DNA of 64,000 bases from Marsupella aquatica (Eukaryota; Plantae; Marchantiophyta). The stretch spans positions 13,767,934 to 13,831,933 of the forward strand of contig OZ316899.1 of assembly GCA_973895155.1 (NCBI GenBank). The letters run 5' to 3'. Made by a program: the position numbers and the translations under genes. The notes below the pieces were generated by a model that saw only the letters and a program-made list of their open reading frames with translations, did not search any database and was not told the origin of the DNA. This document shows positions 10,621 through 62,213 of this stretch, piece by piece (within the stretch, counting starts at the first letter, position 1; each line of letters begins with the position of its first letter).

Positions 10621-10625
10621 CTACC

Positions 10626-13600: not shown

Positions 13601-15288
13601 GACTCTGCATGCCTGGTTGCTGCATCGGCAAGTCCTCCTTCCTGGGCCTAAACACCTGCTCGATCGTAGGGCTAACAGGTGGTTGAGGCTTCTCAGCCAA
13701 CGGCCTCGGCGTTGGAGCTTCCTCGGGTGCCCTTACCTGCAGGGGAAGTACTGGGGCAAAAGTCTGACCTCTGGCATACCGGCACAACAGCGGCATGTGA
13801 TAGCCAAGCCGCGATACGCTCCCCATGCCGATTACCTGCTGCTCCTCCTTTAAGATCTTCTTCAATTGGTTGAGGAGGTACCCGTTGTAGTCCCGGCTTG
13901 GGTCTGGCCTTTCTGCCAGATAGACCTGTGCTTTGCCGATCTCTGCCCTCGGCAAGTTACAATGCATGGTCACCCGCAAGAAATCGATCATCTCTCCTAT
14001 GTGCGGGTTGGTGCAGGTGTTCCGGAAGAAGCCATTCTTCGTTGATGGCCCGGGGAACGACCGGAACTCCTTGTCAGGCAAGGTCTTCCTGGTATCAACT
14101 TTGGTCTTATTGCCTATCGGCAAGCCAAACACTTCGGCAATTACCTTGGGAGTAAGATAGAAATCCTTCCCATATATCCTCGTGCAATTGGTCTCGGGTT
14201 CCCATGACCCCACAAATTCTAATAGGTCTGACTCCGGTACCTCCGGCTTCAGCCATGGTAATCTTACAAAGGCCTCTAAGCCGGATCCGGCCATGAAGCC
14301 TTGGTACTTCTTGGTCTGCATGGCCGTAAAGCATGCATCCTCCTCCCGTGCAAAATGTAGTTGCACCTCCACCGGTAGGGTTGCCGCCCAGCCCTTCCAG
14401 GTGTCATCCCTGGTTGGAATGGCCTTGATGGGATCGACCTCCTCCTCTTCGGCTTCTCCCTGCCTCCTGCTCTGCTGCTCGGCTGGCTTCTTTGGTGCCG
14501 CCGACCTCGTTCTTTTTGCCGGGGTGGCTTCATCGTTGACGGCTCCCTTCCTCTTCATCTCTGCTGCCGTGGAGGTTTCTCCTAGCACCATTGCCTGGGT
14601 CCACCTTTCCGTGCTACCCTTTAATTCCCAGTGTATGTCGTTGCAGTTCTTGATGGCCTCTCGGATGCCGACGACGCTGTCTTTGCAAAACAGAAGATCG
14701 TCGAGTTGATTGGAAGTAGGCGTCCACAGGAACTCGTCCTTGATGAGTTCGCCTCCTAAGAAAGCTGTCTTCTGCAGCTCCCACAATCGAGCGAGCTCCT
14801 GCCGTTCTCGAGCTGCCCTTTCTGATTCCTCGTCCTCGTAAGTCTTGATGTACTCAGTTGCCCGTTCGAACAGGCATCCCCAGAAATGTGCCGCTTGATT
14901 GACGTTGCTCATACCCTCCTTAGGTCGATCGTCGGTATCTACTCTCTCCCCAAGTGCTTGCCTAAGCAGCTGACAGTAGTTGGCCTCCCGTAGTCGTCTG
15001 CCTAGTTCGTGCTCGCAAATGAGCCACCATCTCCTGCAAGCGCTCCCTACCCCTCTCCTCTGCCTGTCCTTCTTCCCGTTGATCCTTCCTAGCCGCCGAT
15101 GCTTAACGCGCCCTAACCCTAATCGAGTTTTCACCCTCAGCGTCCTTACCTCCGGCCTCGGCCCGGGTTCCATGGTTGCCCCTAATTGTTTATATTTTCC
15201 TTGTTTTGTCCCTATACTAAGGTGTTCCTAGGGTGCCTTCCTACTTTACCCACTTAACTGGCCGAGTGATTCCTGTCTAGGCATCACA
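10626..15288 (-). repeat. 3' LTR of Gypsy A (4,663 bp)
   Basis: TGTGGTGCG...GGCATCACA on the plus strand; near-identical to 21513-26178. Confidence 0.96.
11538..15173 (-). pseudogene. LTR-encoded ~1,211-codon ORF (basic N-terminus, plant-transposon/PMD-like domain, acidic linker, long coiled coil), broken by 2 in-frame TAGs
   Basis: ORFs 13518-15173, 12603-13433 and 11538-12596 share one frame, separated only by TAG at 13518 and 12603. The 12603 codon is CAG in the other LTR. Confidence 0.85.
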
Positions 15289-21200: not shown

Positions 21201-21443
21201 GCTCAATCTGGTCCCTGGCCTCTCGTCTGGCCGTGCCTCTAGTTCCCCCATGTCGGTTGGAGACTCACTTCTCCTTACCGACTCTTCTTCTGGTATGTCT
21301 TCTTCGACGCCACTTCCAGTTTCGGAGCTACCAGCTCTTTCTGCCCCTCTCAGTCGCTGTGTATCATGCCACCCGGCGAGCTGCTGCAGTCGAGCTCTCT
21401 CCCGTTGAATCACTCTTTCTTCCCTCGGCGTAAGGTCAGTCAT
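15277..21443 (-). pseudogene. gag-pol of Gypsy A: gag with three Zn-knuckle-like motifs, protease, RT, RNase H, integrase; 3 in-frame stops and 1 frameshift
   Basis: CALCYKTGHHKDAC, CYNCGQPGHFAREC, CMGCRQEGHMLGQC; PIDGGSG; RVCQDYRKLN, MDGYSGYNQI, FIDDF; DVSGFCIGSVL, NYSTTERE; H..GHF..C..C, WGIDY, SDRGTHF, ANGLTER, WLGPF. Stops at 20406, 20031 and 16630; frameshift near 18450-18540. Confidence 0.96.
15289..15301 (-). promoter_or_regulatory. Short polypurine tract of Gypsy A, inside the integrase coding sequence
   Basis: Minus strand AAGTGGGGAGCTA immediately precedes the LTR start TGTGATGCC. Confidence 0.7.
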
Positions 21444-21490
21444 TACCTACGCTTCCGTTCTAACTTCATATCTCACGGCTTAAGAAATGC

Positions 21491-21508
21491 CCCCTCCATC
21501 TGGTGCCA
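21491..21508 (-). promoter_or_regulatory. Primer binding site of Gypsy A (primer tRNA not identified)
   Basis: Minus strand TGGCACCAGATGGAGGGG, 4 nt after the 5' LTR end. Confidence 0.75.
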
Positions 21509-21512
21509 AAAA

Positions 21513-24500
21513 TGTGGTGCGTCCCATGGCTCCCTAAACCCAAGAAACCCCCCAACTCAAGCCGATTCCCGCAGGTTTCGCGCTTGGCGAGGCTGTTTCC
21601 GCGGCTTAGCGGCATGGGACGCTGCTAACCTTCTACTACTACTATTAACATTTTACACAGTCACATATACTGGACAGATCCTTCATCGGGTCATGAGATA
21701 CGTAGCCGGCCTAATCTAGGCCTTCCCCTGTCTTCCCCTCCGTCTTGTTAGGTATGTTTGGAATCCGCCGTCGGAATGATCCCCAATAGGCTTGGTTAAG
21801 CCGCTAAGACATCTCTCAGCTCGACACATCCAACTCTCACTCCCCTGCTTACTTTCCTTCCTTTTGGTTGATGTGGGCACTCTTCACACAAGTTAATGCG
21901 ACACACAAATAGCAAAATGACTCATTCTGACTGAGTCATACTATGCACTTGCCATACAAACAGTACATCTCATACACAAGCTCTGCGAACTAAGCCGTGA
22001 GGCCAACTCTATTCAGCTCTTAGGCATGAAGAAACATGAATATACACAAGGGTCACTGTATGACTAACCGAGAGCTTCTCGTACTACTTGATCCCAGCCC
22101 GGCTGGTGCAAACTAAAAACTTGCTAAAGAAGAGGCCCTGAGCTCCCCGCTGCCCAGGTACTTATCCTGGTAGTGGATCCGCCATTCTTTGCATCGTAAG
22201 CCTAATCTACTTAACAGTAATCTACTTGCCCGAATCTACCTATGTACAGCAAGGCAGGAGCACAAGTGTTGCTCCTACCAGTGGGACCACAATCCCACTA
22301 AGCTAAGTGTCAGGGCCGCTCCTGGTCCTGATCCTAATCTTAAACTTGGAGATCAGCGCCCGCCCTGCCCACTCACGCCTCCTCCCTCCACGTCCGCCCT
22401 CCCTAAAAGGAACGGCGCCCTTGCACCGTCACGACATCGGTGGTGGATCCTTAATGGACGCCCCCAACGCTTCCTCCTCAGCCACTGCCGTAGGTTCATT
22501 TTCTGACAGATTACCTGCCCTTGACTGAGTCAACTCTCCATCGGCCTGACTGGGTCCACCATCGGCGTCGGCATCGGCTCGGGAATCGGTTACGGCCTCA
22601 GCCTCGGCTACGGTCTCCCCGGCCTGCTCAAGAGGCGGATCTGGAATACCGGCCTCATTACTGAGTAGTTTGGCTTGGGCCGCACCACCGCCACCTGTGA
22701 TGATAGCGGGATCTATTGCCGTATTCATGCCGGAGGATGGTGCTGGTTCTACCTCCTTGGTCACCACGGCTTGTGGAGTCGGATTACTCCTTGACCCTGA
22801 AGGTTTCCGCTTTTTCTTCTTTTCTGGTTCGGCAGCTGGTCCCTTCCCCTTCCCACTTACTTCCGGCACTGGTGCAGGTGGCGCGGCTTTTTCTTCGGCC
22901 AGTACCACTCCTGGTAACTTGGTTGCCCCAATTGGAGTTGGGCCTGATGAAGACAAGCACTTAAATACTGCGGCTTGTTTCTTCAGCCGCTCCGTTTGGT
23001 TGTCGGCCCGCCGCTGGAGGTTCTCCATCTTCCTCGTGATTTCCTCCAACTCCTCCTGGGTCTCATCCAGGTCCTTGCGTGCCTCCTCTAGTTCCTTCTG
23101 GGCTTCCTCCCGTTCTTGTTTCAAGGTAGTCCTCTCCTCCCGGGTTGCTCTTAGCTCCTTGTCGAGCTCTGCAATGATGACAGACTCCATCTGGTTCATC
23201 TTGGCGTAAGTCTGTTTGAGCATCTCGTCCTTCTCCCTTAGGTCGGCCTTGAAGCTGGCCGTCAGGGACGCAAGCTCCTACTGCAGCGCCATAATCCCTT
23301 GATAGGATTTCCCTAACTCGGCCTCCTTCTACTCAAGGGCTCCACGGATTTTCTCGAGCTCCCCCTTCAATGCCCATTCCTTTCTTTGGGTCTATGCCAT
23401 GGCCCGGATGTTGGCTGTTATGTGGGCCTCCTCTGTATTCTTCAGCTCTTGCTTCCACTTCTCCCTCTCTTTGATCGTGTCGGCCAACTCTCCCTGCGTC
23501 TGAGTCAGTTTTTCCTTGATATTCTGATTATCAGCCTGCGCGGTGTCCAACTGCCCCTGCATGATGTTCAGCTCATGCCGTTTAATCCGCAGTTCATCTT
23601 GGGCTTTCTTGGCCGCCCTTAGATCTTCAATCTCGGCTTCCATCCTCCTAAGCCGCCGAATGACCTCGTCCTTCTTGCTTCTCTCTAAAGCCACCGCTTC
23701 TTCTAATTGGTGCTTCTCCAACTGCTCCCTATGGAAAAAGGGTCCTACCTCCAACTCCTCTCCAAAGATGCCGAGCGCAAGTTCCCCACACATCTCACCA
23801 TACTCCATGGCTCTATTCTTAGCGTAGGTGGAGTAAGTAGAAGTGATCGGCATCGCCCATCGCGGCCTCTGCTCCCAAGCCGTCCTGCGGATCTCTTCAA
23901 TCGTGGCTAGAGGTTTTCTTCCTTTTTCGGCTAGCCGCCTGATGTCCTCCGGCCAATCTCCTCCTGGTAAATCCTTTTCCCTAGCCAGGGCTGCCTCCTC
24001 TTCCTGCCTGATTCGCTCTTGAAATTCCTGCACCATCTGTTTTATGCCGTCAAAGCTCGGGGGAGCAACATCTGGTGGGGGAGACTCAGGGCTACTCTGC
24101 TGGTTGGGGTCCCCTCGCACTACCCTTGGAAGTGTGGGGACAAACCGGCCACAGGTCCTTACTCCTGGAACGTGATGGTCCGACCCATAGCCGGAATTAT
24201 CATGGCTGCAGTCCTCCACTGCCTCCTCTACTTCTTGGACGTCCGGCTTCTCCCTCTCCTCTTCGTCGGTAGGAGCTTCAGGCAATTCTGCCTCAGATTC
24301 AGAGCTTGAGATTCCCACATACATTCGAACACCTGGCTTGGATTCCGGCCTGATTCTCTCCTTGTCTCCAGCAAAGGGGTTTTCTCTTGTGAGCCGGTGT
24401 AGGCCTACCTATGTAGTAGTGTCCTGCATTGTTGCCGTTGCCGTTGTTGTTGCCGATGCCGATTTCTTTTCTTTCTCCAGTAGTTTCAGCAGACTCTGCA

Positions 24501-26178
24501 TGCCTGGTTGCTGCATCGGCAAGTCCTCCTTCCTGGGCCTAAACACCTGCTCGATCGTAGGGCTAACAGGTGGTTGAGGCTTCTCAGCCAACGGCCTCGG
24601 CGTTGGAGCTTCCTCGGGTGCCCTTACCTACAGGGGAAGTACTGGGGCAAAAGTCTGACCTCTGGCATACCGGCACAACAGCGGCATGTGATAGCCAAGC
24701 CACGATACGCTCCCCATGCCGATTACCTGCTGCTCCTCCTTTAAGATCTTCTTCAATTGGTTGAGGAGGTACCCGTTGTAGTCCCGGCTTGGGTCTGGCC
24801 TTTCTGCCAGATAGACCTGTGCTTTGCCGATCTCTGCCCTCGGCAAGTTACAATGCATGGTCACCCGCAAGAAGTCGATCATCTCTCGTATGTGCGGGTT
24901 GGTGTAGGTGTTCCGGAAGAAGCCATTCTTCGTTGATGGCCCGGGGAACGACCGGAACTCCTTGTCAGGCAAGGTCTTCCTGGTATCAACTTTGGTCTTA
25001 TTGCCTATCGGCAAGCCAAACACTTCGGCAATTACCTTGGGAGTAAGATAGAAATCCTTCCCATATATCCTCGTGCAATTGGTCTCGGGTTCCCATGACC
25101 CCACAAATTCTAATAGGTCTGACTCTGGTACCTCCGGCTTCAGCCATGGTAATCTTACAAAGGCCTCTAAGCCGGATCCGGCCATGAAGCCTTGGTACTT
25201 CTTGGTCTGCATGGCCGTAAAGCATGCATCCTCCTCCCGTGCAAAATGTAGTTGCACCTCCACCGGTAGGGTTGCCGCCCAGCCCTTCCAGGTGTCATCC
25301 CTGGTTGGAATGGCCTTGATGGGATCGACCTCCTCCTCTTCGGCTTCTCCCTGCCTCCTGCTCTGCTGCTCGGCTGGCTTCTTTGGTGCGCCGACCTCGT
25401 TCTTTTTGCCGGGGTGGCTTCATCGTTGACGGCTCCCTTCCTCTTCATCTCTGCTGCCGTGGAGGTTTCTCCTAGCACCGTTGCCTGGGTCCACCTTTCC
25501 GTGCTACCCTTTAATTCCCAGTGTATGTCGTTGCAGTTCTTGATGGCCTCTCGGATGCCGACAACGCTATCTTTGCAAAACAGAAGATCGTCGAGTTGAT
25601 TGGAAGTAGGCGTCCATAGGAACTCGTCCTTGATGAGTTCGCCTCCTAAGAAAGCTGTCTTTTGCAGCTCCCATAATCGAGCGAGCTCCTGCCGTTCTCG
25701 AGCTGCCCTTTCTGATTCCTCGTCCTCGTAAGTCTTGATGTACTCAGTTGCCCGTTCGAACAGGCATCCCCAGAAATGTGCCGCTTGATTGACGTTGCTC
25801 ATACCCTCCTTAGGTCGATCGTCGGTATCTACTCTCTCCCCAAGTGCTTGCCTAAGCAGCTGATAGTAGTTGGCCTCCCGTAGTCGTCTGCCTAGTTTGT
25901 GCTCGCAAATGAGCCACCATCTCCTGCGAGCGCTCCCTACCCCTCTCCTCTGCCGGTCCTTCTTCCCGTTGATCCTTCCTAGCCGCCGACGCTTAATGCG
26001 CCCTAACCCTAATCGAGTTTTCACCCTCAGCGTCCTTACCTCCGGCCTCGGCCCGGGTTCCATGGTTGCCCCTAATTGTTTATATTTTCCTTGTTTTGTC
26101 CCTATACTAAGGTGTTCCTAGGGTGCCTTCCTGCTTTACCCACTTAACTGGCCGAGTGATTCCTGTCTAGGCATCACA
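21513..26178 (-). repeat. 5' LTR of Gypsy A (4,666 bp)
   Basis: Same termini as the 3' LTR; differs by a 4-bp indel (~21659), a 1-bp indel (~25390) and scattered substitutions. Confidence 0.96.
22429..26063 (-). pseudogene. Second copy of the LTR-encoded ~1,211-codon ORF
   Basis: Same protein, with its own lesions (frameshift ~25390; stops at 24628, 23392, ~23330, ~23279) plus the shared TAG at 24409. Confidence 0.85.
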
Positions 26179-26183
26179 CTACC

Positions 26184-31518: not shown

Positions 31519-31582
31519 GTGCTGCCGCGGAGAACCTCAAGGGTACTCTTGAAATAGGTGTCATATTCAAGATGGGCATTAT

Positions 31583-36225: not shown

Positions 36226-37502
36226 ACGTCCAGCTTGACAAAGAGCTGGGTGCTTACGGATCCAAGTTTTTACATAATCACAATTGAATTCGTTTGTAGT
36301 TTGCTATGAAGAACCAAAAACACACTTAAAGGCCTTCAAACTCGGTATTCGTTCCTGTAAAGAACAAGATGGGGTTGGTTTGATAGATTTAAACAATAAT
36401 AAAGAACTAAAAATGTTTTCCACACATAGTAATCAAGTTTGATTACTTTAATAAGGTATTTTGAAGATTTCTCCATAGCAGTGAGTAGTTTTTAATGGTA
36501 ACTCAGCATTGGGTAACCATAAATTAATGAAAATGAAATGATTAACAAAACACAAGAGAAAATAATCTCAAAGTACGCTAAGGGAGTCTGGAATAGACCA
36601 AGTTTACTCCTTAGACATAAGTCAAAATGAAAAGACTTAAGGATTCAAATCCATATTGCTTTTCAGATCTAAACTGCTTACTAGAGTACCTTTTAAAATG
36701 CCGTCAACATGTCTTATCCTTTCTTTCTAAGTGGTACTCAGATAAGATCTAAAAGGTAGCTACTTCAACATTTAGATGGTACTGAGCAACACGAAAGAAA
36801 ATCCATCAATTTCAATGAGACTTAAACTCAATGAGTTAACTTTAAGAACTCAAGAGATTGCAATGAGTCACCAACAAGGAATCTATCATTACAACTCAAA
36901 AGATTTGCACAAAAGGAATTTTACTTCCTGTGTTTATAATCATAGGTAAAAACACAAGAAGAAGGTAAGTCTCTCCAAATGTTAAACCTGATCTCGAACT
37001 CATAGATTCATGATCACCTAGTTTAACACAAGGAAAAGGCAAAAATGCATAACTTAACCATCAACTACACTAGTGGTGGAGGGGGTCTTATAGTAAAAAT
37101 TTACAGAGTAAGAGGTCATAAAGTCGAAGAGACATGCCTCTTCATACTCCTCAAAAAGTTAAAATGACGATTCAGTAAGTGAAAAGCCAAAAATCTGGCT
37201 AAGTCTGAACTCGTAAACTAGTAAACTCGTAAGAATTTTACTTAGCAAAACTCGTAATTGTAAACTAGTAACTCTTAAACTAGTAAACTCGTAATGCGGT
37301 ATTCTTAAGGACTTGATGAATTCAACTATTTTTAACTTCCTACCTATAAGTCAGAAAACTCAAAGGTTTTGCCAGTAGGCTTTCCTAGGTACAGACTATA
37401 TACTTAAGAAGTATGACAGCTTCCAAAGCTCTAGAACGCATTTATAAAAATCAGATAAGATGCACTACTCTTAAACCTAACTAAATCACTTAAGACTACT
37501 CT

Positions 37503-39929
37503 TCAAACTTGCTGTTGGATGTCTTTTGGTTCGAGTAACTCCACAAGGGTAACAGTCTGATTCTGTGTAACTTCGATTAGCTCAGCTTGGCGTGGGGATC
37601 CTCGAGAGTAGGGTAGGCATCTTAGTTGTCTCTCAGGATACATCAGAGGCATTCTCTTCATTGAGTAACATGAATCAATACGAAGGGCTTCTCTATACAT
37701 CCCAATTACATCATAATTGTTGCAAGAGGCGGCATATACTAGGGGATAATGGTACAGGAATTCATCAGAGTTCAGCATCCTGGAATAGAAAGGTTGAAGT
37801 CTCCATCTGACATCTCTGAAGTACCGGTTGAAGTGGGTTAGGGTTTGAGTAGTGACATTGTTCCAGATCCTCTGTTTCTCAGTCAATGAACTGGTTGAAA
37901 CAAGGGTAACTTTGGGTCCTTGTGGAATGTAATCGTGTTGTAGAGCAGTAGACTTCTTGCTCTGCATCAGGAAAGAAACCACAAAATCCAGGGCATAGGC
38001 TACAAGGTTTCCAAAGTATGCCAAAACTAAATCTAGATCTTCTACCTCTACATCACCTTGAAGTAGCATCATAGCAAGAATAGGCCGGAAGTAGAGAGAG
38101 TCAGTCCAGAACTCATCAAATTGTGCCATCTCCACTCTGGAAGTCCCAAAACACCTGAGGTCGAAGATGTAGCTGGCCTCTATTTTCTTGAGATAGTAGT
38201 ATCTCCAGAACTCTCCAACCGGTGGTCTGTTGGCTTGCATAATCTTACAGGTCTCCACATACCTGCACACTTGGAACTCGGGAGGTCTCGGGTATCTGTT
38301 CTCGATGGTGGCATTCCGGGGTGTCTGAGTAGATGAGGTGACAACTGCTACTAAGTTGGGATTGGATCTTAAGGCAGTATCAACATCTTCAAATCCCTGT
38401 CTTGGTGACGGTGTTAAGGAGTTATCATAAGATCGAATGGAATTAAAATCAGAGGGTGGGTCAGAATCTTCAGGTAGATCCTCTCGAACGTAAGGATGCT
38501 CATACTGTGACTGACTGTAGGGCAATCCTTCTATGGGTTCATAGTTGGAATCAGGACTGTAAGGGTGGGAACTTGGACTAAGAGAAAGTGTAACAGTTGG
38601 ACATTGCTGCACTAAGTTGCTGACCACAGATGTTATCTGTCGAGGTTCACACTGTAGTATCTCTAGTAGATCATCTACGATAGCTGCACAACTTATACTT
38701 TCTGTCACGGGAACAGGGTCACTTGATTTTAGAAGAGGGACCTGTTGAGTAGCAAGGGTGAGAGTCACATATTCCATTGGTGTTGATTCTCCTGGGGGAA
38801 AGGTCATCCTGATAGGGCTTAACTGGTCAGGGAATGGTGACTTCAAACTGACATCTTCCATTCTTAAATCATTAACAGCATCATAGAGTCCATCATCACT
38901 ACAACTGAGAAGAGATGTCAACTTATCAATGAGTTGCTAATTCAATTCTACTTTCGAAGGAGTGGATGAGCTGGTTCTTAGAATGACAACAATAGTTGGT
39001 TCTGCAATATGCCCTTGTTGCTCAAAGAGGTCTTCATCCTCTTCATCTTCTTCAGCTACAGGTTGTTCTCCCATGCTGACTTCTCATGAGTACACTTGGT
39101 TATTTAGAGGATGTTGGACAAGCTCCAAGTTGTGTTCAGGCGAAGCTTCAAGACCTCCCACATATACATTTTCTATATCCATATCAATATCCTCATCATT
39201 GGATTTCAGGGAAATGGCATCCCCTGGTTCTTCCACATTGATTTCTTCCTCAATGCCCATCTTGATCAGAAGTAATCCCCTTTCTGTTCTCTCCTCCAAA
39301 TGTAAATAGTCATAGACATAATAGAGCTGAGAGAGATAATGTTGTAAGTAAGTGGTCCTCCCTGCTTTCAAGCTCCTTACTTGATCTTTCATAACATTAA
39401 ACAAAAGTAGGGCCCAATTTACTTTTATAACTCCACTGTGAGCAGCTACAATAGTGTTAGCCAAGGCCACAGGGCAGATAGTTGACTTTTTCGGATGGAG
39501 AATGGGTACTAGAAATTCCAAAAGAATTCTCAGATTGGGGTAATTGCACTGAGTCAGATTCCATCCATTTGTGAGGTTTCTGACTCCAGAGAAGTAAGGA
39601 GATGACAAGTCCTTCTTCTTGGAATACAATGCCGATCCTTCTGATGAGCAACCGAAGGCAAAAGAAATTTGTTCTACTGTCCACAGACTTGGTCGAGCTT
39701 GAATTGTTTGATGGAATTCAGGGGAAATAGTAGTGTCTTTGACAAAATCTTGCAAGTATGTGTCTAACTCCACATTCCATGGTATATGCAAGAGTTCTAA
39801 TCCCAGCTGCTGTAGCGACATTCTTAAATTGGCGTAGCTATTGGGCGCTTGTGGAATTTGGACCAACACTGCCTTGGGAAACACCAGGGATTCAACGCGG
39901 TACTACTCATCAGCTCCGAGGTCTACCAT
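37503..39929 (-). pseudogene. ~800-codon ORF homologous at its N-terminus to the LTR ORF of Gypsy A; 3 in-frame stops
   Basis: The 266-aa and 472-aa ORFs are in one frame, separated by TGA (39084) and TAG (~38937). GLELLHIPW..LQDFV..ISFAFG..NGWNLTQC..LLEFL..VNWA..TYLQHYL parallels the A ORF. Confidence 0.75.
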
Positions 39930-40137
39930 AGCTGATTCTCCGAATGTTCTTGCTGCTCGAGTTGCTACTAAGATCGTGGAGTAAGATAGAGGTAGAAGAG
40001 ATGTTAACAAGGCGCGCTTCTCTATTGCGCTTCAGCCGCTCTCGTCGCATACTCCCACCCCGTAGAAAGGTCCATTGAGATAGTCGTGAGACGTTGCGTT
40101 CGTAAGACTCCTCCGCACACCGCGAACTTGTAACCCT

Positions 40138-40380
40138 TAACTCGTAAGTCGTTAACTCGTAAGTTGTAATCCAATAATTACACTCGTTGTCGATACTCGT
40201 CAACCCATAACTCATAAGTCGTTAACTCATAAATCGTTAACTTGTAAGTTGTAATCCAATAATTATACTCGTTGTCGATACTCGTCAACCCGTAACTCGT
40301 AAGTCGTTAACTCATAAATCGTTAACTTGTAAGTTGTAATCCAATAATTACATTCGTTGTCAATACTCGTCAGCCCGTAA
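40138..40380. repeat. Tandem repeat, 3 units of ~70-85 bp
   Basis: Repeated TAACTCGTAAGTCGTTAAC..GTTGTAATCCAATAATTACACTCGTTGTCGATACTCGTCAACCC. Confidence 0.88.
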
Positions 40381-40559
40381 ACGGACTCAACTTGTAAACC
40401 CGTAATCTAGTAAACTAGTAAACTCGTAAGAAGTTTACTTAGTGACTCATAAATTGTCTGAGTTTAGTCGGAATGCAGTTTACTCTACGGTTAGCAATAA
40501 ACATAGTTTAAATACCTCAAAAAAAATTAAAAATTCCCAGTTTCTTTATACTTTTGGAA

Positions 40560-41144
40560 TTACTCACTACTTACATCGTTTGTGAAAATTATAGCTTTGT
40601 CGATAGTTATCCTCTCGCGAAGCACATCGTCAACTATGGTACATGCCATGATGTGTGCCACCTCTCTGGTTTGGGACAGGAAAAGTTCATGACTGCGCTT
40701 CAACAAGAAGCTTACCCTTCCAAGCCCGTACAGTATATCATCACAACATAAGTCACGATCCACATCCATGAACGACTCACACGTGGGATCAAATAATCCG
40801 TGCAATGTGATGTTCAGTCGGACATCGTAGGGTTCGAGGCAATGTGCACAACAAAATCTTCCAGCAAGTGCAAGATATTGCTTGAAACTCAAACCATCAA
40901 GATCCTCCACCATTATGATGAGCTGCCTCTCTCCCGGCCGTCGCTTGGGATCGGCAGTTACACAACAGTCCGCGCCTACACCAAAAGTGACCCAGCATTT
41001 CTGCTCCTTCTCCGTTGCTATGCCTTGAAGGACACACCGCCAGACGCTCGTCACTTGCATCAATTCAAAAGACCACAATGGAACCAACTCAGAGATACGA
41101 GCATATCCCTTCACTTTAGGTGTCTGTAGCGGCAGATGGCTCAA
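40560..41144 (-). CDS. Orphan 194-aa Cys-rich ORF, function unknown
   Basis: Uninterrupted frame with globular composition (FCCAHC motif), followed by an AT-rich tail; start codon uncertain. Confidence 0.4.
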   Translation of the reverse strand: MSHLPLQTPKVKGYARISELVPLWSFELMQVTSVWRCVLQGIATEKEQKCWVTFGVGADCCVTADPKRRPGERQLIIMVEDLDGLSFKQYLALAGRFCCAHCLEPYDVRLNITLHGLFDPTCESFMDVDRDLCCDDILYGLGRVSFLLKRSHELFLSQTREVAHIMACTIVDDVLRERITIDKAIIFTNDVSSE

Positions 41145-44100
41145 ATCGCAGAGAAGCGGTTTAACTCCTACGATCGAGCAACAAGCTATTTAGATTTTAG
41201 CACCACAAGAACATGAACGAAGGTGTTTCAACATGGCAAGCAACTAGAAAAATTGATGACTCTAAAGGATAGCAGAGATGCAAAAAACACAAAAATGAGC
41301 CATTTCAAACCCTAAATCCTAAAGCCATTCCCGTTGCCGACGATCGCCACAATGGAATACAGTGTGCAAATATGACATAGACAACCCTAATGGGTGAGAG
41401 CTGCCTCAGCGGGCCGGAAGAAAGGTTGACAACATCGCGCGTTGTATATCATCTCATTTGCATCGCCGCCCATGGTTCTCTGCAAAAGAAGTCGCATATC
41501 CTACCAAAGAGTCGCGTAGGGTAAATGATAGATGGGGGTTTAAGACCCTACCTTCCAATTGGATGAAAGCTTTGGTTGCCAATGCCAGAGAATCCGACGC
41601 CGGCAGAGTTGTCGTCATTCATTTGCGTGATCTCCCTATTCACTGGCGAGGGTGCAGAGAGAGCACAGACACGGGCAACAGTACGCTACGGTAGGGAGCA
41701 AGCCATAGGAAATCCACCGGAGGATACTGTTTAAGTAGTGTTGTTTTTTACTCTCGGGGTGGGCGAACCGTACAGTGTGGCCGATGGTTAGGTCTTTCAT
41801 GCAGCAGAGGCTGGGATGCTCCCGATGACTGCTACCAGACTAGCAATCCGCAACCCTACAGGCTCCATCCATCTTGGATCGCCATCGTACTCTCAATGCC
41901 CTCTTAATGCCGAGCCTCGCTTCCCGTCTGCTTCTCGTGTGATCTCTCATGAATGACGGCCAAGGATAAGTTACTCCTCAGGTGCCGCCTCCCAATTTTC
42001 AAGATCCAAGTACCATCAGTACTGCTCAAGGCTCCTACTACTGTCCCTCTCACTACCTAAAGCAGCGAGCCCAAAGTACCACAAACGGGCAAGTAACTCA
42101 GCATGAAAAGCACTGGCACGAGCCATCAACAGGGTATCAGCCATCATCATTAATTTCAAGGTTAAGAACCTCGTGGAGGTCGTGGATAGCCATCTGAAGT
42201 TGATGTGCCTTCTCAAGTGTTCACAATTTTTTAAAACCTATAATACAATGCTGGCGCCTTCTTATAACGTGCCAAAAAAACAAGTAACCCCAATAAACAG
42301 AGCAGGCATAACACCAAATGTGAACAGAATATAGCCTAAACCCTAAAGGACTGTAATATGAATGATAAGCTCCCCCCCCCACATATCTTACACCACTTGA
42401 GGACAGGGGGAGGGGTGCGGGGTACAAGTTGGTGGAGCGAGAGCATTCTCACCTCCTCATTCTTCACTGATGCTCTCATTCACTATGTTTCTTAATCGGT
42501 GGTATCTCGTTGGTGTAGCGTGTGATCGAGTGTTACACATTTAGCCTAGCCTAAGTTTAATTGGAGCGGGCCTGAATGGCCATAAAATGATGTCCAAAAT
42601 CATCATGCATATATAATCATTTTCATTCCATCCCGCCCACTCTAGAAGCTTGAAAATAACTGATGCAAAGATTGTAATTTCTCAACAGTTATAGAAAAAA
42701 CAATCCCCTTACCCTTTTTGGTATCCATTCTCAATAATTAAGAAAAACAATCCCTTGCCGTTTTTGGTCCCTTTAAGGTAGCCTTTCTTATCCGTCCCGC
42801 CTAAAGAGTCTAAAAGTTTGTTTGTTTGTTTGTTTTTCCTTTTTCATTCCTCCTCTCCTTTAAGATACCCTCGATCCTCAATCCCACTAAAAAATCATCC
42901 ATCCCTTATCCTAAACAAGAAGGGGAAAAAACAAAAGTCACCTTAATTGCTCTTATTTAGTCCCTTTAAAATAGTAGTCCCCTCTTCCAGGGGACCCATT
43001 TCACCCAAAGGAAAATAAATTTTAAAAAATAAAGAAATAAAAACTTGGAACAAACAAAGATATTGGATGCTGAATAAAAAAATCACCATTCATAGATCAG
43101 GGTATAATACTCATCCCACAACAGGATCTAAACAAGCATGAAATGCATCGCATTCAATAAGAATTATATTTTGCTGCACATACGCCTTTGTATAAATCTA
43201 CACATTATCAATTCCGCTTATTTGAGGTCGCCCACGGCATAAGTGACAATGAGACTGGTCCCAAATATACTTAAATGAGGACATTTCTATGGCAGTAAAA
43301 ATAGATGCTAAAAAAATCTTCCCTCCTCTTTGGCAGTTTGGGTTGGTGGTTCCCATCTATATCTCTATGGGGGTGCTCCTTCTCTGTTCAAGTCAGAGTG
43401 TTAAGTTACAGGTCAATGGTCTCTGGTCTATGCATGCGGTGTGACAAGTGGTCCTCTAGAGCGTGTGATCCAAACATGTGTAGACACCAAAGTGACCGGT
43501 GGTGGGGTCTGGGAGGGTAGGACAAGTGACATCACCAGACACACTACAGGATGGCGAGTGGTTCCAGATGATACATTGTGCTCTGTGCAAAAACCGACAT
43601 CCAAGAGAACGGTCATCCAACTCTGGGCCAGAAGCCCTACAGGCAGGACAGTCATATTGGCAATTGTGCACACACCCTTGGCACCTAATTTGTGGTGGGT
43701 CATGTACAAGAGACACAAATACCAAGGATGTCGGGAAGGGTACTGAAGCAGGTAGAGGCCAGCTGTAGTTGTTCCTAGCAAGAACAGGGTACTCAAAGTA
43801 CCATGCAGACTGGGCTGGAAGGATCCCCAGTCTGACGTACTCAAGGTGCAACATCTATGCCTTGCGTGCAAGCCGCACATGTTCAGCGTTGCGGGTCCTC
43901 ACCATAAGTGTTGCTTTTGTTGTGATGTCCTTTGTTCACGTCCTTTGATGAGCAAGGCGAGCAGGAGGTCGACTTGCCTTGCCCACAACAACCAACTTGC
44001 ACTTATCAGTTCCCACTCACTAAATTGGTTCCAACTACAGGTCACAGTATACACATAGCATGAAAAGTGCATAGTACATATTTGATGTTGAGTTCCTAAG

Positions 44101-44353
44101 ACAAAGAGCATGTATAGAAAACCATGTTCTCCATGGACATGTGCATAAATCATATTTGGATCTTGTTTTTTCATCCAGAAAGATCAAAAGTCTCACCTTG
44201 CAGGTTGCAGCAAAGAGAAAACTCACTGGTTGTCGTGTTGTGCAAGTGAACCTCCACTGAGGTGGTAGAAAGCTGACAAAGCTTCAGGAAGATGTGAAAG
44301 CAAAAAACTGCTCACAAGCTCAATTCATCCATGGCCCAGTTCAAGGCAAAACA

Positions 44354-44410
44354 GACTACAACATTCAGAAAGAGTCAACTCTACACTTGGTTGTCCAGAT
44401 CAAAATGTAG
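44354..44410 (+). pseudogene. Ubiquitin C-terminal remnant lacking the di-glycine
   Basis: GACTACAACATTCAGAAAGAGTCAACTCTACACTTGGTT = DYNIQKESTLHLV, identical to ubiquitin residues 58-70, then VQIKM*. In-frame DVKAK lies upstream. Confidence 0.82.
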
Positions 44411-45063
44411 CACACACCCTTCGCTTGCTATCCACACTATATTGACATGATCTTTAAAGTAGGCTATCAACCGCAACACAACTCAACGTTCACAGATTTT
44501 GAGGCAACTCAGTCTCTCACCAATAACAAATGAAGGTCGAGGTTGAGATGAGGTGAAGCGTTGGCTTACCTCCACAGCAAGGCGCCAAAGGAGCTCAACA
44601 AGGAGCTCAGCTGGCAAAGCAATATACAGCTCAATTAGCAATTCCTCCACATGCTAGGTTTGTCAATGGGAAAGCAATAACTCAACTGACAAGCAAACTA
44701 CTCAATACATGCTGTTGAGAAGGAGCATTTTTTTTAATCTGAAACTATGTAACAGTGTCACGATCAAGGAGGGCTGGCCTGAAAGGGAGAAGCAACAACG
44801 TGGAGTCTATTATCAAAATCCAATAAGAACTGGATGAGGTTTAGACAGGAGTTTAGAACTTGCCAATTGAATCCCGGTCTAGACTTGTATCTGCTAGCCT
44901 GTAGTTAGCTGTGACTCCTGTAAGCTTTGTTCACAACCCTCTTAAGATATAAACAATTAGAACAAACACAAGTTGTCAAGACAGATTTCACTGGAGCAAA
45001 AAGTCCAAATCAGGTGAACAAAAACCTAACGAGAGAAAATAACAATGAAACTAAGAAGGCAGG

Positions 45064-47520
45064 TGTCACGTCGTCGGCTGCGGCCTTAACTCAGACTTCA
45101 GCTTAGACGGGCACATCCCTCGTAAATCTGAGGGTTCGGGCAGGAAGGGAAGCACGTAATGCACCTTATTCTCGTAAACTAGCGCTAAGTGCGCATACTG
45201 CTAAATACGGACACCTCCTAGGTATGGTTTGTGTTCCGCCGCCGGAACGTACCTTAGTCGATAGCAGGATCGAACCCGGCTTAAGGGCTTCTAACCCTTC
45301 GTGCTGTCCGCCTTTGATCCGAATTCGATGATATAGGTCCTCAACCCGTGCTCGCAACCACTTACCCGCAGGCTGCACCCTGTGCACGTCTCGGGTAGTG
45401 CGTTCGGCCTGGCGCTGCCACCCATATACGAGAAACCCACACACATACACGCGCACATGCATACAATCTTGATTTACACGAAGGAAAATGATGGGAAAGG
45501 ATTTTACTACAAAGGGAACATATGCGTACACTTAGTTGACCCGACAGCCCCGGAATGAACAGGTTCAAGGCCGAGGGTGCACACTACAACGGAGCCCGGC
45601 TCCGCACTCGCCCGACGAGCTTAGTCCTACCCCCTCCCCTTGGTACTCTTTCATTCCCAGAGGTCGGGACTCCCCGCACATACCGCGGATGTCCAACTCT
45701 GCAACTAAAAACCCCCCTGCCTCTACCGAGGGGTGCACTAAATACTAAGGGACGAGGGACGGGGTGTCCTCTCGCCGAAGATTCGTTGACTAAGGTCCTA
45801 ACTAAGCTGACAGTCAGGCCGGAAAATGGCTGTGTCTTATTAGAAGATCCTAATCTACGCAGGCTGGACAGCATGGCAGCGCTGCTGTACCTAAGGCAGG
45901 TGCCTGTCCCAAGAGCCTGACTAAGCCAGTCCTAATCCTAATCTATTCCTACTCCGCTGCTAATGCCTGGCACGCTTGCCAGAGCCGCCCGAATGGGAGC
46001 GGCCATCCCGCTGCCTTCAAAGCCTGTCATTGTCCGCCTTGAGGAGCTGGACCTGGTCCAGCAGAGATTCGTTCTCTCACCTCGCCGCGTCCATCTCCTC
46101 TGCTGCCTCCTGACATGCCTCCTCCAGCTGCTGGGCATCGCTCGTCAGTTTACCCGCCAGCTGGTCCTGCTTCTCGGCCTCGGTTTGGAGCCGCGCCACC
46201 TCGGCCTGCAGCGTGGCTATCTCCGCCGTGTCCCGTTGGGCCCGTTCCTCGGCCTCCTCCAGGTCTTTCTGCCAGGTGACGGTTTGATTCTTCAAACTGT
46301 CAATCTGGTTCCGGAGTCGTGTAATCTCGGCCTCGTTCCCAGCTTTGGCCTGTTCGGCTAGGGCGGTAAGAGCGTGCGCCTTTGCTAACAACTCATCGGC
46401 GGCTGCAACCTTGGGTCGTAGTTGCAGAAGCTCAGCCTCTTGAGCTGCAACTTCGTTCTTTAGGTACACGGACTCCACCCGGTACCGCTCTATCCTCTAA
46501 AGGGCCTCTGACTGGGCCCGACCTGCCTTTACTGCGGCAACCAACTCCTGATTGAAGAAACAGGCTACCTTCCGAGCCATGAACTCCCCGGTATCCCGGG
46601 CAATTTGATGAGAGAAATCTCCCAGAAGCCCGTTCAGAAATGTACCCGGTACGAAGAGTTCCGGGTGGTCCAGGTTGTGCCTGTCCGGAGTTGGGCACGG
46701 GTAGACCTCAACACGCGCAGGGGCCGGGGCAGTGACGTCCAGCCCTGGGGATGTAACGTTGGAAGGGGCTGGAGTGTCCTCCTGCAACAATGTCCGGTTC
46801 TCCGGAATAGCCACCGATGGGTCTTTGGGAGACCCGGGCTCGGGTAAGACCTCCGTCGTACCAACTTCTGTACTTAGCCCGGCTTGTTGGGTCGCATCAA
46901 CGGTTGCGACAACCGACCCATCCGGTACCTCCTCGGTTACGACTACAGCTACTTGTGGAGGTGGGGTGGGTGAAGCTGGCGTGTCCGCTGGACTTCGGGC
47001 CTCGGGTTGGGGCCGTCTCTCCAAGGCCGGGAAAACCCACCTAGCTGGGACCAGCTTTGTAACGTTGACACGGGGAAGGGTTCGTCGATCAAACCGGGTG
47101 TACCACTCAAGAATGATCTCGATGTGGCTAGCAAAATACGTCTTCCCGCCAATGTACAGCGTCTTCCTTCGCCGCTCCATCTCTTCATGGAATTTCTTAG
47201 CGAAGTACGACGCCCACTTCCTAGGTCGATAGTTCTCGACCTGGATAACCTGGGCGGCGGAGATCTCCCCCCGGGGTTCCATCATGTGGAGGGCGTACCT
47301 CTGGAACTCCAGTCGCTCAGCTCGTAACCCGGGTGTGCGAATAGCGACCCGCCACCAGTCCAAACCTGAATTCCCTCTTATTGCCTAATGATGTCCTACC
47401 CATAATGATTACCTAAATACTATCGTTATGCTAATAATAGCGGCCTAAGACACTCCTAACGCGCGTGCTAAGCGCAGTTAGACCGAATCACTCATTAACC
47501 GCCGTACCGGCGGCGTCACA
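45064..47520 (-). mobile_element. Solo LTR B1 (2,457 bp, probably internally deleted) with a coiled-coil ORF; flanks do not form a TSD
   Basis: TGTCACG...CGTCACA termini; the same terminus appears inverted at 62213. Flanks GCAGG and CAAAC. It cuts the A' LTR at 47521. Confidence 0.85.
45960..47363 (-). pseudogene. LTR-borne ORF of family B (C-half of the PMD-like domain, Pro-rich linker, coiled coil)
   Basis: The 288-aa and 133-aa ORFs are in one frame. TAG at 46497 is CAG and TGA at 46077 is CGG in the B2 copy. EISAAQV..KWASYF..TYFASHI matches the A and D ORFs. Confidence 0.78.
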
Positions 47521-48683
47521 CAAACACTTTGGCAATCACTCGGGGAGTGAGATAGAAATCCTTCCCATACACCCTTGTGGAATTGGTCTCGGGCTCCCAT
47601 GATCCCACGAATTCTAGTAAGTCTGAATCCGGCACCTCCGGCTTCAGCCATGGTAAATTTATGAAGGCTTCCAAGCCGGATCCGGCCATGAAGCCCTGGT
47701 ATTTTTGAGTCTGCATAGCCGTAAAGCATGCATCCTCTTCCCGTGCAAAGTGTAATTGCACCTCCTTGGGGAGGGTCGCTGCCCAGCCTTTCTAGGTGTC
47801 ATCTCTTGTTGGAACGACATTGATGGGGTCAACCTCCTCCTCTTCGGCTTTCGCCTGCCTCCTGCTTCCCTGCTCTGCTGGTTTCCTGGCTGCCGCCGAC
47901 CTCATTCTTTTTGCAGGGGTGGCTTCTTCGTTGTTGTTCCCTTTCCTCTTCATAGCGGCTGCCATGGATGTTTCTCCTAGCATGGTTGCCTTCATCCACC
48001 CCTCTGTGCTACCCTTCAACTCCCAGTGTATGTCGTTGCAGCGGTTGATGGCCTCCTGGATGCCGACTGTTCTGTTCTCACAAAACAGAAGATCGTCGAG
48101 TTCATCGATAGTAGGCGTCCACAAGAATTCAGCCGTAATGAGTTCTCCTCCTAAGAAGGCAGACTTCTGTAGTTCCCACAGCCGAGCGAGCTCCTGCCGT
48201 TCTTGAGCCGCTCTCTCCGATTCTTCGTCCTCGTAGGTCCCAATGTACTCAGTTGCCCGTTCTAATAGGCATCCCCAAAAATGAGCAGCTTGATTAACGT
48301 TGCTCATACCCTTCTTGAGTTGATTGTCGGTATCTGCTTCCACCCCAAATGCTTGCCTGAGCAGCGAACAGTAGTTGGCCTCCCGTAGTCGTTCGCTTGG
48401 CTCGTGCTTGCAAATGAGCCGCCATTCCTTGCGCTCGGTCCTTACCCCCCCTTGGCTGGTCTTCCTTCCCGTTGGTTACTCATAGCCGCCGGTACTTAGC
48501 GCGCCCTAACCCTAATCGTGTTCCCTCCCCCGGCATCCTTACTTTCAGCCTTGGCTCGGGTTCCATAGTCACCCTTAATTGTTTATATTTCCCTATTTTT
48601 GTTACTATACTAAGGTGTTTCCTAGGGTACACTCCTGATTTTACTATTTAAACTGACCTAATGATTCCTGGCTAGGCATCACA
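47521..48683 (-). mobile_element. Partial A' giant LTR (duplicate of 1-977, extended leftwards to the B1 junction)
   Basis: Homologous to ~14126-15288; ends GGCATCACA at 48683. Confidence 0.9.
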
Positions 48684-58331: not shown

Positions 58332-60731
58332 TGTGGTGCGTCCCATGGCTCCCTAAACCCAAGAAACCCCCCAGCTCAAGCCGATTCCCGCAGGTTTCGC
58401 GCTTGGCAAGGCCGTTTCCGCAGCTTAGCGGCATGGGACGCTGCTAACCTTCTACTACTACTATTAACATTTTACACACATATACTGGACAGATCCTTCA
58501 TCGGGTCATGAGATACGTAGCCGGCCTAATCTAGGCCTTCCCCTGTCTTCCCCTCCGTCTTGTTAGGTATGTTTGGATTCCGCCGTCGGAATGATCCCCA
58601 ATAGGCTTGGTTAAGCCGCTAAGACCTCTCTCAGCTCGACACATCCAACTCTCACTCCCCTGCTTACTTTCCTTCCTTTTGGTTGATGTGGGCACTCTTC
58701 ACACAAGTTAATGCGACACACAAATAGCAAAATGACTCATTCTGACTGAGTCATACCATGCACTTGCCATACAAACAGTACATCTCATACACAAGCTCTG
58801 CGAACTAAGCCGTGAGGCCAACTCTATTCAGCTCTTAGGCATGAGGAAACATGAATATACACAAGGGTCACTGTATGACTAACCGAGGGCTTCTCGTACT
58901 ACTTGATCCCAGCCCGGCTGGTGCAAACTAAAAACTTGCTAAAGAAGAGGCCCTGAGCTCCCCGCTGCCCAGGTACTTATCCTGGTAGTGGATCCGCCAT
59001 TCTTTGCATCGTAAGCCTAATCTACTTAACAGTAATCTACTTGCCCGAATCTACCTATGTACAGCAAGGCAAGAGCACAAGTGTTGCTCCTACCAGTGGG
59101 ACCGCAATCCCACTAAGCTAAGTGTCAGGGCCGCTCCTGGTCCTGATCCTAATCTTAAACTTGGAGATCAGCGCCCGCCCTGCCCACTCACGCCTCCTCC
59201 CTCCACGTCCGCCCTCCCTAAAAGGAACGACGCCCTTGCACCGTCACGACACCGGTGGTGGATCCTTAATGGACGCCCCCAACGCTTCCTCCTCAGCCAC
59301 TGCCGTAGGTTCATTTTCTGACAGATTACCTGCCCTTGACTGAGTCAACTCTCCATCAGCCTGACTGGGTCCACCATCGGCGTCGGCATCGGCTCGGGAA
59401 TCGGTTACGGCCTCTGCCTCGGCTACGGTCTCCCCGGCCTGCTTAAGAGGCGGATCTGGAATACCGGCCTCATTACTGAGTAGTTTGGCTTGGGCCGCAC
59501 CACCCCCACCTGTGATGATAGCGGGATCTATTGTCGTATTCATGCCGGAGGATGGTGCTGGTTCTACCTCCTTGGTCACCACGGCTTGTGGAGTCGGATT
59601 ACTCCTTGACCCTGAAGGTTTCCGCTTTTTCTTCTTTTCTGGTTCGGCAGCTGGTCCCTTCCCCTTCCCACTTACTTCCGGCACTGGTGCAGGTGGCGCG
59701 GATTTTTCTTCGGCCAGTACCACTCCTGGTAACTTGGTTGCCCCAATTGGAGTTGGGCCTGATGAAGACAAGCACTTAAATACTGCGGCTTGTTTCTTCA
59801 GCCGCTCTGTTTGGTTGTCGGCTCGCCGCTGGAGGTTCTCCATCTTCCTCGTGATTTCCTCCAACTCCTCCTGGGTCTCATCCAGGTCCTTGCGTGCCTC
59901 CTCTAGTTCCTTCTGGGCTTCCTCCCGTTCTTGTTTCAAGGTAGTCCTCTCCTCCCGGGTTGCTCTTAGCTCCTTGTCGAGCTCTGCAATGATGACAGAC
60001 TCCATTTGGTTCATCTTGGCGTAAGTCTGTTCGAGCATCTCGTCCTTCTCCCTTAGGTCGGCCTTGAAGCTGGCCGTCAGGGACGCAAGCTCCTGCTGCA
60101 GCGCCATAATCCCTTGATAGGATTTCCCTAACTCGGCCTCCTTCTGCTCAAGGGCTCCGCGGATTTTCTCGAGCTCCCCCTTCAACGCCCATTCCTTTCT
60201 TTGGGTCTCCGCCATGGCCTGGCTGTTGGCTGTTATGTGGGCCTCCTCTGTATTCTTCAGCTCTTGCTTCCACTTCTCCCTCTCTTTGATCGTGTCGGCC
60301 AACTCTCCCTACATCTGAGTCAGTTTTTCCTTGATATTCTGATTATCAGCCTGCACGGTGTCCAACTGCCCCTGCATGATGTTCAGCTCATGCCGTTTAA
60401 TCCGCAGTTCATCTTGGGCTTTCTTGGCCGCCCTTAGATCTTCAATCTCGGCTTCCATCCTCCTAAGCCGCCGAATGACCTCGTCCTTCTTGCTTCTCTC
60501 TAAAGCCACCGCTTCTTCTAATTGGTGCTTCTCCAACTGCTCCCTATGGAAAAAGGGTCCTACCTCCAACTCCTCTCCAAAGATGTCGAGCGCAAGTTCC
60601 CCACACATCTCACCATACTCCATGGCTCTATTCTTAGCGTAGGTGGAGTAAGTAGAAGTGATCGGCATCGCCCATCGCGGCCTCTGCTCCCAAGCCGTCC
60701 TGCGGATCTCTTCAATCGTGGCTAGAGGTTT
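58332..60731 (-). mobile_element. Truncated Gypsy A 3' LTR (duplicate copy) with the coiled-coil part of the LTR ORF
   Basis: Starts after CTACC; homology to A ends at GCTAGAGGTTT (60731). Confidence 0.95.
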
Positions 60732-62213
60732 GCTTCGCCAAACTCCGGGAGGTTGGTTGCGGCTGTAAGGGCAGGACATGCGCAGGTAGAGACAACGCAG
60801 AGAATAGAGCAAAATCAGGTTGAGTCTGCCTACCTAAAGGATGAAGTGGCAACCCTGGAGGCTGAACTCCAGCAACTATGGCCTCAGGTAACGGCCACGG
60901 AGGACCAGGTTGCCAAGGCTAGGGCCCGAGCAGCTTTAGCAAAACAGGCCGGGCTTGGAAAGGACGCTGAGATCGCACGGCTCCGGACCAAGATTGACGG
61001 TTTGAAGGGACAAGCCGTCAGTTGGCAAAAGGATCTGGAGGAAGCTGACTCTAGGTCTTAGCGGGACACAGTCGAGATTGACACCCTAAAGGTAGAGGTG
61101 GCACGGCTTCAAGGAGAAGCCACAAAACAGGCCCAGTTGGTGGATAAGCTAACGAGCAACACCCAGCAACTGGAGGAGGCACGCCAGGAGGTCGCCTAAG
61201 AGGCGGACACGGTGAAGCGGGAGAACGAATCTCTGCTGGACCAGGTCCAGCTACTCAAGCAGGATGCCGATAGACTCAGAAGGGAGCGGGATAGCCGCTC
61301 CCACTCAGGCGGCTCTGGCAAGCGTGCTAGGCATTAGCGGCGGAGTAGGATTAAAATAGAGTTAGGAATAGCTAAATCAGGCTATAGGGACAAGCACCTG
61401 CCTAGTTAAAGCAGCACTGCCATGCTGTCCAGCCTGCGTAGATTAGGATCTTCTAATAAGACAAGCCGTTTTCGGGCCTGATAGCCAGCTTAGTTAGGAC
61501 CTTAGTTAGCAAATCTTTGGGCGCGAGGGCACTCCGTTCCTCGGCCCTTAGTATTTAGTGCACCCCTCGGTAGAGGCAAGGGGGGGTTTTAGTCTCAATG
61601 TTGGACATCCGCGGTATGTGCAGGGAGTCCCGACCTCTGGGAGTGAAAGAGTACCAAGGGGAGGGCGTAGGACTAAGCTTGTTGGGCGAGTGCGGAGCTG
61701 GGCTCCGTTGTAGTGTACACCCTTGGCCTTGGACCTGTTCATTCAAGAGCTTTCGGGTCAACTAAGTGTACGCATATGTCTCCTATGTAGTAAAATCCTT
61801 TCCCATTATTTCCTTCGTGTAAATCAAGATTGTATGCTTGTGCGTATGTATATGTGTAAATCTTGTGTATAGGTGCCAACGCTTGGCCAAACGCCACTAC
61901 CCAAGTCGTGCACGGGGTGCAGCTTGCGGGTAAGTGGTTGCAAGCCCGGGTTAAGTACCCATATCATCGAATCCGGATCGAAGGCGAAGCCCGTAAGCCG
62001 GGGTCGATCCTGCTATCGACTGAGGTATGTTTTGGCAGTGGAACACTAACCATACCTAGGAGGTGTCCGTATATGACAATAGGCGCACTTAGCGCTAGTT
62101 TACGTGAGTTAGGTGCATTCCGTGCCTCCCTCCCTGCCCGAACCCTCATTTTGACAAAGGATGTGCCTGTCTAAGCCGAAGCCCGGGTTAAGGCCTAGAC
62201 TGACGACGTGACA
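60732..62213 (+). mobile_element. Partial LTR B2, inverted relative to B1, inserted in the Copia 5' LTR
   Basis: ORF 60753-61061 matches 46077-46478. Ends GACGACGTGACA at 62213, directly followed by Copia LTR sequence. Confidence 0.9.

Follow-up and report, generated by a model that had tools for sequence, protein, structure and literature searches.

Can a long terminal repeat (LTR) retrotransposon carry a large protein-coding gene inside the repeat itself, and what would such a gene do for its carrier? The question is raised by a nest of retrotransposons in the liverwort Marsupella aquatica (GenBank assembly GCA_973895155.1, contig OZ316899.1, positions 13,767,934 to 13,831,933 of the forward strand), a stretch of 64,000 nucleotides referred to below as the window. 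An initial annotation had proposed that LTR-like units of three different families (A, D, and B) place an accessory open reading frame (ORF) of one protein family near the LTR start, and had likened the products to plant mobile domain (PMD) proteins with a role in chromatin or anti-silencing. All 19 of the peptides that it quoted are found in stop-to-stop frames of the minus strand, at 13521-15227 (A), 39087-39902 (D), and 46500-47384 (B). We conclude that the gene-in-LTR architecture is very probable for A and D, and we assign a probability of about 0.5 to the whole reading, in which an LTR-borne protein with the fold of the plant transposon protein VANC21 binds motifs of its own family and counters host silencing in trans.

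The accessory gene in units A, D, and B

Element A is a Ty3/gypsy LTR retrotransposon of non-chromovirus type, with the accessory gene in both of its LTRs (Table 1). It is 15.55 kb long and inserted within a Copia element; its protease match is weak (E 0.097), and neither a chromodomain nor a second RNase H was seen in its internal region in the domain scan of window ORFs. The LTRs are direct repeats with 98.8% identity (53 substitutions in 4,662 aligned bases). Because they run from TG to CA, have a target-site duplication (TSD), adjoin a TGG and a polypurine tract (PPT), and enclose pol, they are true 4.66-kb LTRs, and both hold the accessory frame. A tandem partial element was considered and is ruled out by the PPT, the TGG of the primer-binding-site (PBS)-like stretch, and the TSD, all located at the repeat ends. 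The ATG of the gene lies 376 bp into the LTR, and the conserved core of the protein (~13761-14348 in the 3' LTR copy) is followed by a coiled-coil-like region. A design of two separate ORFs seems unlikely, since the stop at codon 465 is present in both LTRs and explicable by a single earlier mutation. A 14-base motif just before the PPT (~15305-15325, minus strand) is identical in L002, a locus from outside this genome (~2490-2503), although the proteins of the two are 50 to 60% identical; the motif probably acts in cis in reverse transcription or packaging.

Unit D is an insertion with LTR ends, and we read it as a solo LTR because it has a 5-bp TSD, an empty site, and no internal region. The empty site was seen in contigs from four public sequencing runs placed on 35800-42950 at 85% likeness: two runs (X1 and X3) join 36289 directly to 40576, and in X3 a single contig of 1,430 bases spans 35803-36289 and 40576-41373. 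The 4,286 bases skipped correspond to the LTR plus one TSD copy (4,281 + 5). The start of 36251 given by the initial annotation is hence corrected to the bounds in Table 1, and a purine run near 40060, considered as the LTR start, is ruled out by the TSD and empty site, which place the start at 40575. We place D on the minus strand from the homology of its ORF with those of A and L002. An opposite-strand TATA-like word, in loose contig ends at 37102, is a possible hint that D runs the other way. The gene begins 646 bp into the LTR, and its product is identical at 561 of 809 aligned positions to an intact public relative of 808 amino acids, P0001.

The reading frame of unit B opens 136 bp into the unit, already in the middle of the core, the N-terminal half of which is missing. 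The proposed position near the LTR start suits A and D, and B begins mid-domain; the proposed tail of ~0.9 to 1.2 kb was correct for all three (A, ~0.91 kb; D, ~1.21 kb; B, ~0.90 kb). No full-length element was recovered for either B or D. The 3' end of B is common to B and to a second unit, B', and the 5' end was seen in one copy. B is probably what remains of an LTR after recombination between two copies removed part of it, and we consider it likely to belong to the same gene-in-LTR group, of which it is the weakest third.

Alternatively, B could be a fragment altered by rearrangement, either with ends other than those of an LTR or with an ORF that normally begins in, or is spliced from, an internal region. 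It has no TSD, its flanks being different (which could also follow recombination between two copies), and this fits a rearrangement, as do the missing half of the core, in-frame stops across the first 136 bp, and the lack of direct homology between D and B. We nevertheless find this explanation unlikely, given the TG..CA termini and their near inverted repeat, the sharp 5' junction in A', a B-to-B' ratio of nonsynonymous to synonymous substitution (dN/dS) of 0.19, and the recurrence of the same 3' end in the independent B', which is joined cleanly into a Copia-type LTR (an uninterrupted copy of that LTR lies at ~7437-7598). A tail motif in common with A, 29 bp long (E 2e-4) and 170 to 250 bases from the unit ends, also speaks for B as an LTR. 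The absence of DNA similarity between units noted in the initial annotation thus holds for D with A and for D with B but not for A with B. The motif is absent from B' and D with three mismatches allowed; its hairpin has a GCGG loop, and the version in the 5' LTR of A differs by two changes.

Table 1. Features of the window, numbered from its first letter
Feature	Position	Strand
Element A 5' LTR, 4,666 bp, TG...CA; accessory gene inside (ATG 25802, one frameshift)	21513..26178	-
Element A 3' LTR, 4,663 bp, TG...CA	10626..15288	-
Element A TSD, GGTAG	10621-10625 and 26179-26183	
Element A PBS-like stretch; TGG begins four bases past the 5' LTR	21492..21508	-
Element A gag, zinc knuckle, protease, reverse transcriptase (RT), RNase H, integrase; gypsy order	15280..21446	-
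Element A PPT, immediately upstream of the 3' LTR	15289..15301	-
A accessory gene, 3' LTR copy; 1,124 codons in one frame, ATG 14912, stops at codons 465 and 770	11538..14912	-
A', sister LTR with 81-82% identity to A, first 1.16 kb only, interrupted by B within the core domain; duplicate at 3-977	47521..48683	-
3' portion of A LTR within the 13-kb duplication, ending at B'	58332..60736	-
Unit D solo LTR, 4,281 bp, TGTAAG (40575) to ACTACA (36295)	36295..40575	-
D TSD AACGA, downstream copy	36290..36294	-
D TSD AACGA, upstream copy	40576..40580	-
D accessory gene; 808-codon frame from ATG 39929, in-frame stops at codons 9, 282, and 331	37503..39929	-
D conserved core domain, 207 amino acids, predicted VANC21-like fold	39252..39872	-
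D upstream motif cluster, CpG-rich; four exact TTACGAGTT, located in and next to a tandem array (85 bp x 2.9)	40137..40429	-
D second motif cluster, right after the stop; four exact TTACGAGTT, same strand	37208..37294	-
Unit B, probable LTR, 2,457 bp, TGTGACG...CGTGACA, starting exactly at the end of A' homology	45064..47520	-
B accessory frame; C-terminal half of core, linker, coiled-coil-like region; internal stops 46499, 46079, 46019	45960..47384	-
B', second unit of the B family, 3' part only, 80% identity to B, ...GTGACA end as in B	60752..62213	+
Hairpin-like motif common to A and B tails	45234..45247 (B), 10872-10885 (A)	-

Protein family, selection, and predicted fold

The proposal of a single protein family in A, D, and B stands for A with B and, through a profile, for A with D, and fails for a direct comparison of D with B. 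The cores of A and B align with a local score of 73, reached by none of 2000 shuffles, and by BLASTP with an E value of 5e-6 over 74 residues, which span only the C-terminal half of the domain. The pairwise score of A with D is weak (46, reached by 5 of 2000 shuffles), and that of D with B is not significant (23; 1564 of 2000). A phmmer search of 1.84 billion clusters with the D core retrieved 241 at E<=0.001, and no informative names were found in the 20 that we examined. A hidden Markov model (HMM) built from D and the best 150 of these 241 clusters, with A and B excluded, was run against 1,562 six-frame segments of the window. It matched both LTR copies of A with an E value of 6e-6, the next best segment being at 0.82, and did not match B (score, -1.8). 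The profile-profile alignment suggested by the initial annotation gave the same division: hhalign joined the family to the N-terminal half of the A core with a probability of 84 over 103 columns (0 of 60 shuffles), and the alignment with the B core was not significant (11 of 60). The chain of homology hence links D to A over the first half of the core and A to B over the second, with an overlap of ~15 residues. Judged by these profile comparisons, the cores of A and D are homologous.

Word-index protein searches with the A core and with D gave no match; the one made with the family alignment, also without a match, ran on proteins of 1,415 to 4,040 residues only and is hence uninformative. None of 28 candidates among viral contigs belonged to the family.

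The coiled coils predicted for A and B correspond to many coiled-coil Pfam matches, all weak and below the cutoff. By a crude measure, a coiled-coil-like stretch is present in 17 of 32 long relatives and absent from D and P0001, and the C terminus of D does differ in sequence from those of A and B, as first noted. An old architecture with exchangeable C termini fits this pattern, from which we infer both the swapping and its age.

By Nei-Gojobori estimates, dN/dS between A and A' is 0.09 for 90 codons of the core and 0.19 for 171 codons of the N-terminal part, and the value for B and B' cited above covers 162 coiled-coil codons. Between L002 and another outside locus, L003, the ratio is 0.39 over 570 codons with few changes. 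The accessory frame is under purifying selection, and the gene was useful to the elements. Every copy of the gene in the window is broken.

Membership in the PMD family was not borne out by sequence: PF10536 (PMD) matched none of 33 window ORFs at E<=1 and none of 138 relatives at E<=0.02, and neither DUF1985 nor DUF287 was matched in those relatives at the latter threshold. PF03078 and PF20167 (Transposase_32) had no match in window ORFs. The suggested role in chromatin or anti-silencing gains indirect support from structure, with VANC21 (PDB 9LNK) and not a host PMD protein as the best match. A model of the D core aligned with VANC21 over 190 of 207 residues, the best result among 48,161 chains, with a middling Z score and 9% identity. 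Foldseek returned no match for this model at E<=0.001 against PDB and viral models, and on a second inspection 9LNK was not among its 171 chains. PDB sequence searches gave coiled-coil matches outside the core only, and single-sequence fold prediction reached a predicted local distance difference test score (pLDDT) of 40. On the strength of the model, we hold it reasonably likely that the VANC21-like fold reflects real homology.

The match could instead be a chance arrangement of helices, with the protein having an accessory role in particles, in movement, or as an env-like factor, as has been proposed for the sense ORFs of Athila elements. This would suit the middling Z score and the lack of both Foldseek and sequence matches, the sense orientation directly after pol, the long coiled coil, and the single PF20167 match in the 138 relatives, a weak one in the C-terminal half of the P0079 core (17.2 bits against a cutoff of 45). 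It would leave unexplained why a plant transposon protein was retrieved out of all the chains with nearly the whole core matched. A, B, and L002 lack a clear transmembrane segment (hydropathy over 19 residues, at best 0.82 to 1.0; D is borderline at 1.69), and the A and B proteins have basic runs resembling nuclear localization signals (NLS). We therefore regard this reading as unlikely.

The available part of PMC5735166 describes VANC21 as binding a 9-mer of its own family that lies dense and in one orientation in noncoding tandem repeats. A comparable 9-mer, TTACGAGTT, occurs eight times in D on one strand only, in two clusters, and not at all in the remaining 59.7 kb of the window; with one mismatch it occurs 22 times in D versus 9 elsewhere in the window. 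None of 100 dinucleotide shuffles of the noncoding parts of D attained eight copies. One X1 contig joins 37294 to 40376, skipping 3,081 bases with a short side of 30 bases; this reflects either loss of the gene from a D variant through recombination between the motif clusters or a misplacement between repeats.

Two observations limit the parallel with VANC21 and VANDAL elements: neither A nor B has a motif word or array comparable to the TTACGAGTT clusters, and the gene body of D is CpG-depleted. The same two observations would suit a reading in which the protein, with identical architecture and DNA-binding fold, acted not in demethylation but as a transcription activator or a chromatin tether, be it MAIN/MAIL1-like or a guide of integration, and the fold is common to MAIN, a host regulator. 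The sole experimentally characterized match is, however, a transposon anti-silencer, D has same-strand motif clusters like those of VANDAL, and the first 400 bp of D retain CpG (observed/expected, 1.86, largely owing to TTACGAGTT itself). An activator or tether is, in our judgment, rather doubtful.

The arrangement outside this genome and the setting of the window

The broad family alignments, A1 and A2, held no stretch conserved enough to scan for loci, and a scan with a sub-alignment of 15 sequences yielded four loci (L001 to L004) from 160 candidates. The RT-RNase H and integrase of L002 are 62% and 51% identical to those of A, respectively, and its order is pol, the 14-base motif, a purine tract, TG at ~2526, and then a family frame of 641 codons, the ATG of which lies ~570 bases beyond the TG of the LTR. 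L003 has the PPT and TG as in L002. L004 shows a similar LTR start after unrelated sequence, as expected of an LTR that is solo or at the 5' end, and its ORF lies 700 bases from that start. No LTR boundary was seen in L001, and both LTRs of one element were seen in none of the four loci. We conclude that the gene-in-LTR arrangement is wider than this genome and recurs in the same pol group (L002 and L003). At least half of the sampled words of the A LTR were found in 5 of 16 listed sequencing runs, from three studies under three organism labels, one possibly the source; no RNA run holding these words was among those listed.

The LTR start in L002 (2526-2555) and L004 (27-56) is a short inverted repeat, TGTGGGA...TCCCACA. 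CCGG is 3 to 4 times commoner than base composition predicts in L001, L002, and L004, in LTR and pol alike, which could reflect either a target word scattered through the sequence or a bias of that host related to methylation.

Judged by relatives in the literature, the elements of the window are of plant type. Positions 1-13030 are repeated at 47707-60736 with 99.7% identity, and these 13 kb, which take in Copia sequence and part of the A LTR, are either a recent segmental duplication or an assembly artifact. Pieces of another gypsy RT-RNase H at 6412-7271 (minus strand) are 35 to 38% identical to the L002 pol and represent a different lineage. An intronless ORF of 530 codons with an Ulp1/C48 protease domain (29947-31536, minus strand; E 2e-34) lies upstream of nameless ORFs (33906-35247) and of the sequence that received the D insertion, and near it is a tandem repeat of a 26-base unit in 3.2 copies (31951-32034). 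Mutator-like elements (MULEs) bearing Ulp1 exist, and this ORF may be part of an element of Mutator or CACTA type.

Proposed mechanism and comparison with known systems

The accessory gene follows the PPT in A and L002, and in A it lies within the repeat at both ends. We propose that U3, the unique 3' part of the LTR, came to include an Athila-like 3' accessory ORF. Every round of reverse transcription places a U3 gene at both ends, and such a gene persists when a solo LTR forms; reverse transcription would thus have copied this gene to both ends, and recombination would leave it in solo LTRs. The leader of 370 to 650 bp would carry the gene's own promoter, the core would bind DNA, and the coiled coil of A, B, and many relatives would oligomerize the protein. 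For family D, we would expect the protein to target the two one-strand clusters of TTACGAGTT on either side of the gene, the second of which is located where the promoter of the element itself should be. Once bound, the protein would reduce methylation, so that the family could still be transcribed. The promoter, DNA binding, oligomerization, and anti-silencing are steps that we infer.

A wider suggestion, which we offer tentatively, is that an old gypsy lineage made its LTR a self-contained anti-silencing cassette of a VANC-fold gene with family target motifs. Each insertion would carry two copies of this cassette, and the recombination that should eliminate the element would, by way of solo LTRs, spread trans-acting protectors through the genome. 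On this view mobile elements invented the VANC/MAIN fold in ancient times, before the VANDALs of eudicots, and the cassette would be the first sequence-specific anti-silencing system of a retrotransposon. The accessory ORFs of plant retrotransposons are a long-standing puzzle of unsettled function, and surveys for extra ORFs between LTRs would overlook a gene inside the LTR. A large, selected gene in this position makes a solo LTR a potential gene, beyond a promoter remnant. In the portions available, PMC11728184 and PMC12844716 treat anti-silencing ORFs of retrotransposons as an open question, and PMC12859917, PMC10508981, and PMC12885004 offer nothing that bears on it directly. Our literature search found no plant gene-in-LTR and no VANC-like retrotransposon protein; its coverage stopped short of the VANC21 structure paper and the 2022 VANC survey, either of which may treat relatives of this kind, and of the REXdb element tables, where ORFs within LTRs could appear.

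Among gypsy elements, Athila/OTA likewise combine a sense ORF after pol with long LTRs, a 5-bp TSD, and the absence of a chromodomain, and PF20167, which with PF03078 marks their ORFs, is the domain weakly matched in P0079. Published extra ORFs, in the available text of PMC7264820, PMC6317226, and PMC11963269, are described as internal, most of them located between pol and the 3' LTR. The extra ORF of Athila/OTA is upstream of the PPT, whereas the gene described here is downstream of it, duplicated, and left in solo LTRs. Phygy and Selgy elements likewise lack a chromodomain and an extra RNase H, with pol filling the internal region. The available part of PMC6317226 gives them a 4-bp TSD, mean sizes of 8.6 and 5.0 kb, respectively, and no extra ORF. 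Element A differs from them in its length, its 5-bp TSD, and its large ORF.

Retroviruses have genes in U3, such as sag of mouse mammary tumor virus (MMTV) and nef of human immunodeficiency virus (HIV), whose frames lie in or overlap the LTR and are copied to both ends. Those genes have a few hundred codons and encode unrelated proteins that act on host immunity, whereas the genes described here have 640 to 1,120 codons and occupy most of an LTR of 4 to 4.7 kb.

MAIN/MAIL1, which serve host silencing, and Ogre elements carry the PMD (PF10536) that the accessory family does not match. MAIN/MAIL1 have been reported to be structurally alike to VANC, and a shared fold is plausible in two steps, from our model to VANC21 and from VANC to MAIN. 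VANC proteins belong to VANDALs, which are Mutator-like DNA transposons, whereas the carrier here is a gypsy retrotransposon with the gene inside its LTR. The likeness to VANC is a predicted one, at 9% identity, with no DUF1985 or DUF287 match among the 138 relatives and no motif arrays in A and B. By analogy, the accessory protein may work like VANC in VANDAL without being a member of that group. In the published view, as given in the available part of PMC13547354, VANC arose through capture of a host MAIN-like gene; a diverse family of VANC fold in gypsy LTRs would offer an alternative route to its origin.
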